Of a stretch of DNA of 64,000 nt, positions 11,507 to 63,102 are shown in pieces. The stretch's first letter is position 1; every line of letters begins with the position of its first letter. This DNA is from Escherichia coli. Lineage in GTDB: Bacteria; Pseudomonadota; Gammaproteobacteria; Enterobacterales; Enterobacteriaceae. The stretch lies in NCBI RefSeq assembly GCF_016026235.1, contig NZ_CP065613.1, one strand, 5' to 3'. Position numbers and translations under genes: made by a program. Below the pieces are notes generated by a model that worked only from the letters and a program-made list of their open reading frames with translations, had not been told where the DNA came from and did not search any database.

Positions 11507-11582
11507 TCCTCTGTAGTTCAGTCGGTAGAACGGCGGACTGTTAATCCGTATGTCACTGGTTCGAGTCCAGTCAGAGGAGCCA
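11507..11582 (+). tRNA. asnU: tRNA-Asn (GUU)
   Basis: Exact 76-nt tRNA-Asn sequence, identical to the asnW and asnV copies. Confidence 0.95.
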
Positions 11583-13914: not shown

Positions 13915-13990
13915 TCCTCTGTAGTTCAGTCGGTAGAACGGCGGACTGTTAATCCGTATGTCACTGGTTCGAGTCCAGTCAGAGGAGCCA
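13915..13990 (+). tRNA. asnV: tRNA-Asn (GUU)
   Basis: Exact 76-nt tRNA-Asn sequence. Confidence 0.95.
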
Positions 13991-48465: not shown

Positions 48466-48480
48466 ATGGAGAGAAGCACA

Positions 48481-48957
48481 ATGCAACAACTTTCCTTTCT
48501 GCCCGGAGAGATGACGCCCGGCGAGCGCAGCCTCATTCAACGGGCCCTGAAAACCCTGGACCGCCATCTTCATGAACCCGGCGTGGCCTTCACCTCCACC
48601 CGGGCGGCACGGGAATGGCTGATTCTGAACATGGCGGGACTGGAGCGTGAAGAGTTCCGGGTGCTGTATCTGAACAACCAGAATCAGCTGATTGCCGGTG
48701 AAACCCTCTTCACCGGCACCATCAACCGCACGGAAGTCCATCCCCGGGAAGTGATTAAACGCGCCCTGTACCACAATGCCGCTGCCGTGGTACTGGCACA
48801 CAATCACCCGTCCGGTGAAGTCACACCCAGTAAGGCAGACCGGCTTATCACCGAACGTCTGGTACAGGCACTGGGCCTGGTGGATATCCGGGTGCCGGAC
48901 CATCTGATAGTCGGTGGCAACCAGGTTTTCTCCTTTGCCGAACATGGTCTGCTTTAA
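48481..48957 (+). CDS. yeeS: RadC-like JAB-domain protein
   Basis: JAMM-like motif HNHPSGEVTPSKAD and RadC-family layout. Confidence 0.75.
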   Translation: MQQLSFLPGEMTPGERSLIQRALKTLDRHLHEPGVAFTSTRAAREWLILNMAGLEREEFRVLYLNNQNQLIAGETLFTGTINRTEVHPREVIKRALYHNAAAVVLAHNHPSGEVTPSKADRLITERLVQALGLVDIRVPDHLIVGGNQVFSFAEHGLL

Positions 48958-49019
48958 CCCGTCACAACCACATCACACCTGTTTTCACTTTTATCTTCTG
49001 TCTTCAGAGGTATCCCATT

Positions 49020-49241
49020 ATGAAAATTATCACCCGTGGTGAAGCCATGCGTATTCACCAACAACATCCGACATCCCGTCTTTTTCCGTTCTGTACCGGC
49101 AAATACCGCTGGCACGGCAGTGCTGAAGCGTATACCGGTCGTGAAGTGCAGGATATTCCCGGTGTGCTGGCCGTGTTTGCAGAACGCCGTAAGGACAGTT
49201 TTGGTCCGTATGTCCGGCTGATGAGCGTCACCCTGAACTGA
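49020..49241 (+). CDS. yeeT: DUF987 protein YeeT
   Basis: 73-aa product MKIITRGEAMRIHQQHPTSRLFPFCTGKYRWHG...; recognised as YeeT. Confidence 0.8.
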   Translation: MKIITRGEAMRIHQQHPTSRLFPFCTGKYRWHGSAEAYTGREVQDIPGVLAVFAERRKDSFGPYVRLMSVTLN

Positions 49242-49403
49242 TGTTCCGTCACCCGGAAAACGAGTACGACTGGCTGAGCTCAGACGCCGCTGTGGATGAG
49301 GTCCTGCTCATCAACGAATACACCTTTACCGAAGCCGGTCTGCGCGCCGGCTGACCCGTCATCGTTAAACTATCATTCACCGATTTTCTGTGAGGATTTT
49401 ATC

Positions 49404-49772
49404 GTGTCAGACACACTTTCCGGGACAACGCATCCCGATGACAATGACGACCATCCCTGGTGGGGACTACCCTGCACAGTGACGCCCTGTTTCGGCGCCC
49501 GTCTGGTGCAGGAGGGTAACCGGTTGCATTACCTTGCCGACCGTGCCGGTATCAGAGGCCGGTTCAGAGATGCGGATGCGTACCCTCTGGACCAGGCCTT
49601 TCCGCTGCTGATGAAACAACTGAAATTAATGCTCACCAGTGGTGAACTGAATCCCCGCCATCAGCATACCGTGACACTGTATGCGAAGGGGCTGACCTGT
49701 GAAGCCGACACCCTCGGCTCCTGTGGTTACGTTTATCTGGCTGTTTATCCGACACCTGAAACGAAAAAGTAA
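49404..49772 (+). CDS. cbeA: Type IV antitoxin CbeA (YeeU)
   Basis: 122-aa product with GTG start (VSDTLSGTTHPDDNDDHPWWGLPCTVTPCFGARLVQEGNRLHYLADRAG...). Confidence 0.85.
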   Translation: MSDTLSGTTHPDDNDDHPWWGLPCTVTPCFGARLVQEGNRLHYLADRAGIRGRFRDADAYPLDQAFPLLMKQLKLMLTSGELNPRHQHTVTLYAKGLTCEADTLGSCGYVYLAVYPTPETKK

Positions 49773-49861
49773 ACCACCAGAATAACCTTCTGCTCCGGCC
49801 TGGTGTTTTCACCACGCCACTGTCCCATTTTTTATCTCTGCATATCAGGAAAATCTTCAGT

Positions 49862-50239
49862 ATGAAAACATTACCCGACACGCATGTACGGGAGGTATCG
49901 TGCTGCCCGTCTCTCGTCACCATCTGGCAGACACTGCTCACCCGACTGCTGGACCAGCACTACGGCCTTACGCTGAATGACACACCGTTCGCTGATGAAC
50001 GTGTGATTGAACAGCATATTGAGGCAGGCATTTCACTGTGTGACGCGGTGAACTTTCTCGTTGTAAAATACGCGCTGGTACGTACCGACCAGTCGGGATT
50101 CAGCGCCTGTACCCACTCTCAGTTAATAAACAGCATCGATATCCTCCGAGCTCGCCGGGCAACAGGCCTGATGACCCGCGACAATTACAGAACGGTAAAT
50201 AACATTACCCTGGGGAAGCATCCGGAGGCGAAACGATGA
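49862..50239 (+). CDS. cbtA: Type IV toxin CbtA (YeeV), cytoskeleton-targeting
   Basis: 125-aa product MKTLPDTHVREVSCCPSLVTIWQTLLTRLLDQHYGLTLNDTPF... Confidence 0.85.
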   Translation: MKTLPDTHVREVSCCPSLVTIWQTLLTRLLDQHYGLTLNDTPFADERVIEQHIEAGISLCDAVNFLVVKYALVRTDQSGFSACTHSQLINSIDILRARRATGLMTRDNYRTVNNITLGKHPEAKR

Positions 50240-50439
50240 AACTGGCCCTGACGCTGGAAGCCGACAGCGTTAACGTGCAGGCGCTGAACATGGGGCGCAT
50301 TGTCGTTGACGTCGATGGTGTTAATCTCGCTGAACTGATTAACAAGGTCGCTGAAAACGGTGATTCACTCCGCGTGGTGGATGAACGTGACTCTACCGAA
50401 ACACCGGCAACTTATGCCAGCCCTCACCAGTTGCTGTAA
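50236..50439 (+). CDS. yeeW: Small CP4-type protein YeeW
   Basis: 67-aa ORF overlapping the cbtA stop by 4 nt (ATGA). Confidence 0.7.
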   Translation: MKLALTLEADSVNVQALNMGRIVVDVDGVNLAELINKVAENGDSLRVVDERDSTETPATYASPHQLL

Positions 50440-60314: not shown

Positions 60315-61139
60315 TTACTCCAGCGGCATTACCAGCGGATCGGGATACTGGTATTCAAATCCCAGTTCATTACAAATCCGACTGCCATCAATAATCTTAC
60401 CTTTGCCGCTGTCCAGACTATTTCTGAACTGCGGAGGTTCCAGCCCCAGTAAACGGGCCATCTGCGGATAGAAAACATTACGCGCAGGGTGAGCTGGCGC
60501 ACATATATTATAGATGTGTCCGCCTTTAGGTGCCTGTAACAACAGAGTGATAGCGCCAATAACATCTTCTAAATGGACTAAATTAACACCATGTTCACCA
60601 TCAGGCGCGGTTTTTCCGGCAAAGAAGCGTCCGGGATGACGCCCCGGTCCGACCAGCCCCGCAAGACGCAGAATATCGACCGAAGTACCGGGTAAATTGT
60701 GCAACCAGTCTTCGAGTTCTTCTAATACTCGTCCACTGTTGGTCACCGGATTACGCGGGGTGGTTTCTTTCACCGTGCCTTGCGCGTCGCCATAGACAGA
60801 CGTTGAGCTGGTAAAAATAATTCGGGGAATACGATGGGCCAGCGCGCTATCCACTAACTCTTGTACCGCTTGTAAATAGAACTCATCGCCGGGGCCGCTA
60901 CGACGTGCCGGAAGCGTAATGACCAGCGCATCGGCATCCATCAGGGCATCCAGATCGTCAGAATCGCAAACTAACTCAGGCTCCATGCGAAGCAGATAGC
61001 TGTCAATGCCACTCATTCGGGCCGCTTCGACACCATCTTGTGTGGTTTTACTCCCGGTGACTTGCCAGCCTCGCGCTGAAAGTGACATCGCCAGCGGCAT
61101 GCCTAACCACCCTAACCCGACAATTGCGACCTTTTTCAT
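60315..61139 (-). CDS. yeeZ: NAD(P)-binding epimerase/dehydratase-family protein
   Basis: Rossmann motif VAIVGLGWLG at the N-terminus. Confidence 0.85.
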   Translation of the reverse strand: MKKVAIVGLGWLGMPLAMSLSARGWQVTGSKTTQDGVEAARMSGIDSYLLRMEPELVCDSDDLDALMDADALVITLPARRSGPGDEFYLQAVQELVDSALAHRIPRIIFTSSTSVYGDAQGTVKETTPRNPVTNSGRVLEELEDWLHNLPGTSVDILRLAGLVGPGRHPGRFFAGKTAPDGEHGVNLVHLEDVIGAITLLLQAPKGGHIYNICAPAHPARNVFYPQMARLLGLEPPQFRNSLDSGKGKIIDGSRICNELGFEYQYPDPLVMPLE

Positions 61140-61221
61140 CCGTTATCTCCTGATACACCTTAGATCTATAAGGCTACGCTAGCGTATCAAAACTGACAAT
61201 TCATTCTATGAATGAATCTGT

Positions 61222-61476
61222 TCAATAATGATAACGACATGCTGCAATGAGCAGTGAATCATCAGTAACCGCGTATACCAGACGGTGCTCCTCTGTAATG
61301 CGTCGGGACCAGAAACCTGACAAATTATGTTTCAGGGGTTCTGGTTTCCCCTTACCTTCAAATGGTGTTCTGCGGGTATCTTTGATAAGTTCATTGATCT
61401 TTTTAACAATTCGCTTATCTGTTTCCTGCCAGTACAGATAATCATCCCATGATTCCTCAGACCAGATTAGTTTCAC
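61222..61476 (-). CDS. yoeB: Type II toxin YoeB (ribosome-dependent mRNA interferase)
   Basis: 84-aa product [50 protein letters not shown]... Confidence 0.9.
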
Positions 61477-61724
61477 TCAATAATGTCCTTTTCCGTTCCT
61501 TTGCCTGATTTCAGGCTATCGATTGAGTCCATCAATCTCCGGGCGTTAGCGGGGGAACGCAGTAGATAAGCCGTCTCTTCCAGCGAGTTGTATTCTTCGA
61601 GTGACATCAGAACACAAGCCTCTCCATTCTGACGAGTAATGAGGATCGGGGCATGATCTTCAACGGCTTTCATCATTGTTGCCGACAAATTCTGACGCGC
61701 TTCGCTGTAGCTAATTGTACGCAT
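61473..61724 (-). CDS. yefM: Type II antitoxin YefM
   Basis: 83-aa product [45 protein letters not shown]...; its stop overlaps the yoeB start (ATGA). Confidence 0.9.
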
Positions 61725-61737
61725 GTAAATCTCCTCT

Positions 61738-61765
61738 TTTGTACAGTTCATTGTACAATGATGGG
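61738..61765 (-). promoter_or_regulatory. yefM-yoeB operator (paired TGTACA palindromes)
   Basis: ttgtacagttcattgtacaatg immediately upstream of yefM contains two TGTACA cores (61742-61747 and 61754-61759). Confidence 0.5.
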
Positions 61766-62006
61766 TGTTAATTAACTATTTATTAATTAGTTTGTAGATC
61801 AAGACATTGTCAGCGAGACGAAAAATCAGACTTTGCTCTTTTTGGTGCTGTCAAGTTAGAGGACAGTCCTCTTAGCCCCCTCCTTTCCCCGCTCATTCAT
61901 TAAACAAATCCATCGCCATAAAATATATAAAAAAGCCCTTGCTTTCTAACGTGAAAGTGGTTTAGGTTAAAAGACATCAGTTGAATAAACATTCACAGAG
62001 ACTTTT

Positions 62007-62057
62007 ATGACACGCGTTCAATTTAAACACCACCATCATCACCATCATCCTGACTAG
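62007..62057 (+). CDS. hisL: his operon leader peptide
   Basis: ATG ACA CGC GTT CAA TTT AAA followed by seven consecutive His codons, CCT GAC TAG (MTRVQFKHHHHHHHPD). Confidence 0.9.
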   Translation: MTRVQFKHHHHHHHPD

Positions 62058-62119
62058 TCTTTCAGGCGATGTGTGCTGGAAGACATTCAGATCTTCCAGT
62101 GGTGCATGAACGCATGAGA

Positions 62120-62154
62120 AAGCCCCCGGAAGATCACCTTCCGGGGGCTTTTTT
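62120..62154 (+). terminator. his attenuator terminator
   Basis: agcccccggaagatcaccttccgggggct followed by tttttt, between hisL and hisG. Confidence 0.8.
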
Positions 62155-62202
62155 ATTGCGCGGTTGATAACGGTTCAGACAGGTTTAAAGAGGAATAACA
62201 AA

Positions 62203-63102
62203 ATGACAGACAACACTCGTTTACGCATAGCTATGCAGAAATCCGGCCGTTTAAGTGATGACTCACGCGAATTGCTGGCGCGCTGTGGCATTAAAATTAA
62301 TCTTCACACCCAGCGCCTGATCGCGATGGCAGAAAACATGCCGATTGATATTCTGCGCGTGCGTGACGACGACATTCCCGGTCTGGTAATGGACGGCGTG
62401 GTAGACCTTGGAATTATCGGCGAAAACGTGCTGGAAGAAGAACTGCTTAACCGCCGCGCCCAGGGTGAAGATCCGCGCTACTTTACCTTGCGTCGTCTGG
62501 ATTTCGGCGGCTGCCGCCTTTCGCTGGCAACGCCGGTTGATGAAGCCTGGGACGGCCCGCTCTCCTTAAATGGTAAACGTATCGCCACCTCTTATCCTCA
62601 CCTGCTCAAGCGTTATCTCGACCAGAAAGGCATCTCTTTTAAATCCTGCTTACTGAACGGTTCTGTTGAAGTCGCCCCGCGTGCCGGACTGGCGGATGCG
62701 ATTTGCGATCTGGTTTCCACCGGTGCCACGCTGGAAGCTAACGGCCTGCGAGAAGTCGAAGTTATCTACCGCTCGAAAGCCTGCCTGATCCAGCGCGATG
62801 GCGAAATGGAAGAATCCAAACAGCAACTGATCGACAAACTGCTGACCCGTATTCAGGGTGTGATCCAGGCACGCGAATCAAAATACATCATGATGCACGC
62901 ACCGACCGAACGTCTGGATGAAGTCATCGCCCTGCTGCCAGGTGCCGAACGCCCAACCATTCTGCCGCTGGCGGGAGACCAACAACGCGTAGCGATGCAC
63001 ATGGTCAGTAGCGAAACCCTGTTCTGGGAAACGATGGAAAAACTGAAAGCGCTGGGTGCCAGTTCAATCCTGGTCTTGCCGATTGAGAAGATGATGGAGT
63101 GA
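62203..63102 (+). CDS. hisG: ATP phosphoribosyltransferase
   Basis: 299-aa product from [20 protein letters not shown]... Confidence 0.9.

Follow-up and report, generated by a model that had tools for sequence, protein, structure and literature searches.

Does the DNA beside the his operon in this chromosome hold a complete yefM-yoeB toxin-antitoxin operon together with the elements that regulate it, and how does this copy compare with the one studied in K-12? The DNA analysed is a stretch of 64,000 nucleotides, here called the window, in which a sequence-only reading had placed the type II module yefM-yoeB at 61222-61765. We conclude, with a probability of about 0.97, that the window carries an intact chromosomal type II toxin-antitoxin operon, yefM-yoeB of Escherichia coli, divergent from the his operon. 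The pair is already known and there is nothing unusual about the window copy; the annotation is correct, and the copy, which looks functional, belongs to a module that ranks among the best characterised of the E. coli type II toxin-antitoxin systems.

Gene pair and products

The assignment as a type II operon is upheld by the reading frames, by the protein families, by alignment with K-12 and by identity to the crystallised proteins. The operon lies on the minus strand, which the sequence-only reading did not state, so that upstream corresponds to higher coordinates. Its coding features are as follows.

61222-61476, minus strand: yoeB, toxin gene, 84 amino acids, GTG start and TGA stop, from the open reading frame listing
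61473-61724, minus strand: yefM, antitoxin and autorepressor gene, 83 amino acids, ATG start and TGA stop
61473-61476, minus strand: four-nucleotide overlap GTGA, in which the yefM stop TGA overlaps the yoeB start GTG

The arrangement is that expected of a type II module, with small, adjacent genes on the same strand, the antitoxin gene ahead of the toxin gene and their ends overlapping. The overlap of four nucleotides had been proposed from the letters alone and is found at exactly this point; the minus-strand junction reads ...ATTATTGAGTGAAACTAATC, or over a longer span ATTGAGTGAAAC. The GTGA overlap suggests that translation of yoeB is coupled to that of yefM.

The order yeeY, yeeZ, yoeB, yefM, followed by hisL-hisG-hisD on the other strand, is the K-12 order, and the spacers of 82 bp between yoeB and yeeZ and 282 bp between yefM and hisL equal the K-12 values tabulated in PMC5120126. 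The module had been described as a neighbour of the his operon; hisL (62007-62057) indeed lies 282 nucleotides away, and both it and the His leader RNA are on the strand opposite to yefM-yoeB. The leader peptide encoded by hisL is MTRVQFKHHHHHHHPD, the His operon attenuator is matched by Rfam RF00514 at 62033-62156 (131.6 bits), and hisG follows at 62203-63102.

Profile searches place both products in their families. YoeB matches Pfam YoeB_toxin PF06769 (2.8e-43; 146.3 bits against a cut-off of 27; profile positions 1-80 of 80) and the NCBIfam equivalog TIGR02116 (132.8 bits against 51.8), with weak, sub-threshold matches to RelE/ParE families as well. YefM matches Pfam PhdYeFM_antitox PF02604 (6.1e-28; 96.8 bits against 29.8) and the NCBIfam equivalog NF008499 (186.6 bits against 121; positions 1-83 of 83).

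All 84 residues of YoeB are identical to those of chain 2A6Q_E and all 83 of YefM to those of 2A6Q_A, the YefM-YoeB complex having been crystallised with these same sequences (2A6Q). The YoeB sequence is also that of the chain in the ribosome complexes 4V8X and 6OXA. Identity to these and other solved chains gives the window YoeB the fold of a RelE-like microbial RNase. In the structure of YoeB on the 70S ribosome, Glu46 serves as general base, Arg65 stabilises the transition state, His83 is the general acid and Tyr84 orients (PMC3814384); E46, R65, H83 and Y84 are all found in the window protein, whose last residues are CRYHY. Ribosome-dependent cleavage of mRNA and inhibition of growth have been demonstrated for the identical YoeB (PMC3814384, PMC6821326).

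Promoter and operator

The regulatory elements upstream of yefM were located by mapping the published K-12 elements on to the window.

61731-61736, minus strand: Shine-Dalgarno sequence GAGGAG of yefM, 6 nucleotides before the ATG, read from the sequence
61740-61745, minus strand: short operator repeat (S), core TGTACA, which holds the +1 G at 61744
61744, minus strand: transcription start +1, a G inside S, derived from ATG = +21 (PMC1802561) and +1 = G (PMC7730913)
61748-61761, minus strand: long operator repeat (L), TCATTGTACAATGA, a perfect 14-bp palindrome and the primary YefM binding site
61750-61755, minus strand: -10 hexamer TACAAT of the promoter pyy, within L (sequence from PMC7730913, position mapped in the window)
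61773-61778, minus strand: -35 hexamer TAGTTA, separated from the -10 hexamer by a 17-bp spacer (PMC7730913)

Two TGTACA palindromes had been reported directly upstream of the genes, and they are there, at 61740-61745 and 61752-61757, 15 and 27 nucleotides upstream of the yefM ATG and 12 bp apart from centre to centre. The distal one forms the centre of the L palindrome TCATTGTACAATGA. The arrangement is that described for the K-12 operator (PMC1802561), with paired TGTACA cores within 80 bp of the yefM start and the 5' core embedded in a longer palindrome; the L repeat given there, 5'-TCATTGTACAATGA-3', is identical to that in the window, and S has the same TGTACA core, 12 bp off from centre to centre. 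The interval 61222-61765 includes both genes and both repeats but stops short of the -35 hexamer, which falls outside it.

All the published pyy and operator elements are present and unchanged. For pyy these are the -10 hexamer TACAAT, the -35 hexamer TAGTTA, the 17-bp spacer and +1 = G (PMC7730913, Kedzierska et al. 2020), and in K-12 transcription starts in vivo 20 nucleotides before the yefM ATG (PMC1802561, Kedzierska et al. 2007). The operator overlaps the core promoter, with the -10 hexamer inside L and +1 inside S, and the DNase I footprints of YefM and of YefM-YoeB span the -10 hexamer (PMC1802561). In K-12, YefM represses about 5.5-fold and YefM-YoeB to background; mutation of the S repeat impairs repression, and the sequences flanking the palindromes may influence binding (PMC1802561). 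The K-12 operator, whose sequence over 61738-61761 is that of the window, is repressed by YefM and more strongly with YoeB, and by analogy the same would be expected of the window allele.

A scan for consensus promoters did not call the yefM promoter, because its -35 hexamer TAGTTA matches the consensus at only 3 of 6 positions. The miss reflects what the tool can detect and does not argue that the promoter is absent; a poor -35 match is in keeping with the published weakness of pyy.

The start of yefM is fixed by experiment. In K-12 it has been mapped at +21 (PMC1802561), with a ribosome binding site 6 bp from the ATG (PMC1802561), and an alternative ATG at -7 to -5, equal to the ATG at 61751 in the window, is not used (PMC1802561). 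The longest mechanical open reading frame for yefM, 92 amino acids from the ATG at 61751 inside the operator, was accordingly rejected, this ATG not being the real start (PMC1802561).

Might the two TGTACA motifs have arisen by chance, with no operator there at all? The motif is not enriched across the 64-kb window, which has 19 sites: dinucleotide shuffles give 13.8 ± 3.5, and as many as 19 occur in 10 of 100. This is what a chance origin has in its favour. The spacing, however, is unique. No other pair of TGTACA sites in the 64 kb lies 12 nucleotides apart, the next-smallest gap being 101 nucleotides; a spacing of exactly 12 turned up in just 2 of 1000 shuffles, and a particular 60-nucleotide leader would hold at least two sites with a probability of about 1.6e-4. 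Furthermore, the cores are invariant across alleles in which neighbouring positions vary, and footprinting and mutagenesis have been carried out on these same sequences (PMC1802561). Chance does not account for the paired cores; we give that explanation a vanishingly small probability.

Alignment with the K-12 locus, proposed as a check in the sequence-only reading, leaves both reading frames and both palindromes undisrupted. Against MG1655 (NC_000913.3, 2087500-2091500), the alignment from yeeZ to hisG spans 2,788 columns with no indels and 55 substitutions. All eight coding changes, five in yoeB and three in yefM, are synonymous, and the operator at 61738-61761 is unchanged. The K-12 operon (b2017/b4539; PDB 2A6Q) shares with the window copy its proteins, gene overlap, L and S repeats, -10 and -35 hexamers, position of the transcription start, Shine-Dalgarno sequence and yeeZ-hisL site. 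The window copy differs from it by the eight synonymous changes, by three substitutions in regulatory spacers and by a more divergent patch upstream of the promoter. One of the spacer substitutions, at 61727, lies between the Shine-Dalgarno sequence and the ATG (ATTTAC compared with ATTGAC in K-12); the others, at 61764 and 61766, are just 5' of L in the spacer between the -35 and -10 hexamers. As flanking sequence may influence binding (PMC1802561), the repression set-point of this allele may differ from that of K-12.

The differences from K-12 are natural allelic differences. Stretches of 871 bp and 1,701 bp from the window recur without a single mismatch in other sequenced strains (SCZE5 and XH993 among them), in which RefSeq labels the copies yoeB, yefM and hisL, and identical DNA is annotated as yoeB/yefM by RefSeq in thousands of genomes.

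A decaying or inactive copy, either a pseudogene or a toxin-dead variant with a dead operator, would be a rival to this assignment, and such states are known elsewhere at the locus (a relic in strain HH97, a short allele and the R65L substitution in strain THO-015, all described below). In the window, however, both reading frames are full length and encode proteins identical to the crystallised, active ones, the catalytic residues are all present, and the operator and promoter hexamers are unchanged. We regard an inactive copy as very improbable. Identity and regulatory anatomy of the window operon, as read from its sequence, are firm. The operon serves as a positive control for annotation from the letters alone, the original call having been accurate to the base.

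Allelic variation at the yeeZ-hisL site

Constraint on the operon was assessed by aligning 11 leader sequences, namely those of the window, of K-12, of eight further intact alleles (97.6-99.3% identity) and of the HH97 relic. L, S and the -10 and -35 hexamers are invariant in all 11, that is, in the ten intact alleles and in the relic. Variation is found in 4-6 nucleotides just 5' of L (ACACCC, ACGCTC, ACGCCC, ACGCCT, ACGTCT or ACATCC), in the L-S spacer and the base after S in one strain, and in the spacer between the Shine-Dalgarno sequence and the ATG. This pattern of invariant hexamers and palindromes set among variable spacers gives independent comparative support to the published operator and promoter assignment. 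The exact 30-mer that covers S and L occurs in 3,492 genomes; the remaining ∼725 genomes that bear the module presumably carry spacer substitutions of the kind seen in the sample.

The genes show a similar pattern. Among the sampled alleles, the polymorphic codons divide into synonymous and non-synonymous in the ratio 7:1 for yefM and 10:5 for yoeB, and 9 of 10 diverse alleles encode the same YefM protein. Taken together, the sequence comparisons indicate purifying selection on the yefM-yoeB genes and on the defined DNA elements.

One of the eight further intact alleles sampled, that of strain THO-015 (L012 301-555), has in YoeB the substitution R65L, at the arginine that stabilises the transition state, together with T19A, and in YefM the substitution G74D. 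Judged from its sequence, the R65L protein might be a naturally attenuated toxin.

Across 5,426 complete E. coli genomes, the module is present in 4,217 and its flanks in 5,416-5,423. About 22% of complete genomes are without it, and the module is therefore dispensable. In 1,193 of the 5,426, including O157:H7, the site is occupied instead by a short allele, a 425-bp REP-containing yeeZ-hisL intergenic region with the REP core CGCCGCATCCGGC. In E. coli ERL05-0623, for example, the short allele (L002 941-1365) replaces window positions 61140-62006. The absence of yoeB and yefM from O157:H7 Sakai, with REP sequences in the same spacer, has been published (PMC3158064). The hisL gene of ERL05-0623 carries a single C to G change, giving the codon CAG for CAC.

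A single genome, that of HH97 (NZ_CP116409.1, L003 976-1624, equivalent to window 61217-61864), has a frameshifted yefM together with a relic of the 5' part of yoeB. The relic is ∼64-75% identical to the window, with 75% identity over 604 nucleotides (E = 8e-109) that take in the 5' end of yoeB, yefM and the leader. It contains numerous indels that are not multiples of three, lacks the yefM start codon and Shine-Dalgarno sequence, and has unrelated sequence in place of yoeB codons 24-84. Its promoter-operator block (window 61738-61777, 40 nucleotides) is nevertheless 97-100% identical to the functional alleles, with the longest exact run at 61736-65. This conserved block could reflect selection on an orphan operator or very local gene conversion.

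The relation between these alleles is less direct. A three-way MAFFT alignment suggested that the short allele is itself a relic of yefM, but this was withdrawn, since local BLAST finds no significant similarity between the short allele and the window cassette outside the flanks. Local BLAST does match the short allele, at 86% identity, to the left part of the HH97 allele. What is retained is an indirect chain from the short allele through HH97 to yefM, which we treat as a lead only. It suggests, by way of one intermediate genome, that the "empty" site derives from a decayed, divergent lineage of the cassette. The yeeZ-hisL site would then carry two ancient allelic lineages of a ∼650-bp cassette (61217-61864), one intact and the other ∼25-35% divergent and decayed; we put this forward tentatively, as a history that is rather unlikely as matters stand. 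The same proposal, with the same doubt, takes the short allele of the 1,193 genomes and the HH97 relic for what remains of the decayed lineage. If it were true, the HH97 block would point to selection on an orphan promoter that binds YefM, perhaps to drive or insulate yeeZ, or else to very local gene conversion. Two lineages would supply population context and leave the content of the window unaffected.

The boundaries of the variable cassette can be placed from the same comparisons. Its left boundary lies just beyond the 3' end of yoeB, at a hairpin.

61200-61216, minus strand: AT-rich hairpin TTCATTC-TAT-GAATGAA, 6 nucleotides after the yoeB stop, present in the minimum free energy fold of 61140-61230 (z = -2.1)

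The three alleles compared (window, short and HH97) all conserve the hairpin and show no differences as far as 61216; the variable cassette (61217-61864) starts exactly where the hairpin ends. A terminator scan called no terminators on the minus strand, and the hairpin is not a canonical one. Because of this, yeeZ (60315-61139) may be co-transcribed with yefM-yoeB by read-through; it has been listed as "likely cotranscribed" (PMC5120126).

At the right end of the cassette, upstream of the yefM promoter, the patch 61804-61857 holds 13 of the 55 differences from K-12 within 54 nucleotides (∼24%, compared with ∼2% elsewhere), and the sampled alleles form discrete haplotypes over it. Folding of 61790-61880 gave no RNA structure better than those of shuffled sequences (z = +0.98 and -0.12), and the His leader is the only Rfam match. 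The patch may mark a recombination junction or may merely be unconstrained sequence.

Working and role of the operon

What is known of the biochemistry comes from experiments in which the proteins and the operator were identical to those of the window, and by analogy it would carry over to the window operon. On this basis, a weak sigma-70 promoter (-35 TAGTTA, 17-bp spacer, -10 TACAAT, +1 G at 61744) would give rise to a bicistronic mRNA, from which yefM would be translated by way of a good Shine-Dalgarno sequence and yoeB from the GTG that overlaps the yefM stop. Synthesis of the toxin would probably be coupled to that of the antitoxin and lie below it, such coupling holding the amount of toxin at or below that of antitoxin. 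A YefM dimer would bind L first and then S, and the YefM2-YoeB complex would bind both repeats ∼100-fold more avidly and block RNA polymerase, as shown for the identical K-12 operator. With the -10 hexamer and the transcription start lying under the repeats, binding would shut the operon off.

When YefM is depleted, free YoeB would enter the ribosomal A site and cut the mRNA behind the second position of the codon; Glu46 would serve as base in this reaction and His83 as acid, with stabilisation by Arg65 and Tyr84. Proteolytic loss of YefM is Lon-dependent (PMC7167474), and its depletion, with activation of the toxin, has been shown with Lon overproduction and at 42 °C (PMC7167474).

What the operon does for its host is another matter. 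The physiological role of yefM-yoeB is still disputed, and according to reviews stress-triggered activation is not a general rule (PMC7167474). The genes could be intact and the module still be a selfish, addiction-type element or a neutral passenger with no host-beneficial stress function, persisting through its own stability and by hitch-hiking beside the recombination-prone his/O-antigen region. Its variable presence (4,217 genomes with the module and 1,193 with the alternative allele at the same site), the decayed copy in HH97 and the R65L substitution at a catalytic residue in one sampled allele are all consistent with such an element, as are the lack of a fitness effect at 42 °C and the questions raised over stress activation (PMC7167474), and papers on the O-antigen flank treat the region as exchangeable (PMC3158064). 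Against this, YefM is identical in 9 of 10 alleles despite seven synonymous polymorphic codons, and the operator is invariant, which shows that the module is being maintained. Maintenance is also expected of an addictive element, however, and the data do not separate the two readings; we judge the selfish or passenger explanation to have a little less than an even chance. It concerns the biological role only, and the identity and mechanism of the operon are not at issue.

Comparison with related systems places the operon among the RelE-superfamily type II modules. Like relBE and others of this group, yefM-yoeB has its antitoxin gene first, is autorepressed, and encodes a ribosome-dependent mRNA endonuclease with a RelE-like fold. 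Unlike the relBE toxins, YoeB has a complete Glu/His acid-base pair, as in RNase T1 and RNase Sa, and a weak ribosome-independent activity (PMC3814384), and its antitoxin has the Phd/YefM fold rather than the RelB fold (PMC3814384).

Another related system is axe-txe from the Enterococcus faecium plasmid pRUM, which pairs a homologous Phd/YefM-type antitoxin with a YoeB/Txe-type toxin. Its L and S repeats likewise place two TGTACA cores at a distance of 12 bp, and its -10 hexamer, TACAAT, is the same (PMC7730913). In contrast to yefM-yoeB, axe-txe is plasmid-borne, its -35 hexamer is TTGCTT and its promoter is ∼20-40 times stronger (PMC1802561, PMC7730913); it has a further promoter upstream and is repressed at a different step (PMC1802561, PMC7730913). 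The two systems do not cross-repress in vivo (PMC1802561, PMC7730913).

The window holds a second toxin-antitoxin module, of type IV, at 48466-50439. Its antitoxin, of the CbeA family, is encoded at 49296-49772 (plus strand) and its toxin, of the CbtA family, at 49862-50239 (plus strand), with RadC/YeeS-like (48466-48957), DUF987/YeeT (49020-49241) and DUF5983/YeeW (50236-50439) genes as neighbours. This module is only 91% identical to the SCZE5 copy.

A CP4-44-like genomic island of ∼33 kb occupies window positions ∼18700-52100, between cobU and tmaR/yeeX. Comparison with NCTC9008 assigns to it IS21, ISL3, IS110 and IS3 elements, Ag43/AIDA-type autotransporter fragments, an antirestriction gene and a PfkB kinase cluster. 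Coverage of 27100-52000 reaches 80% or more in only 8 of the 5,426 genomes. Three genes for tRNA-Asn (GTT) are spread over ∼4.3 kb upstream of the cob genes and the island, at 9683-9758 (minus strand), 11507-11582 (plus strand) and 13915-13990 (plus strand); tRNA-Asn genes are classic sites of island integration.
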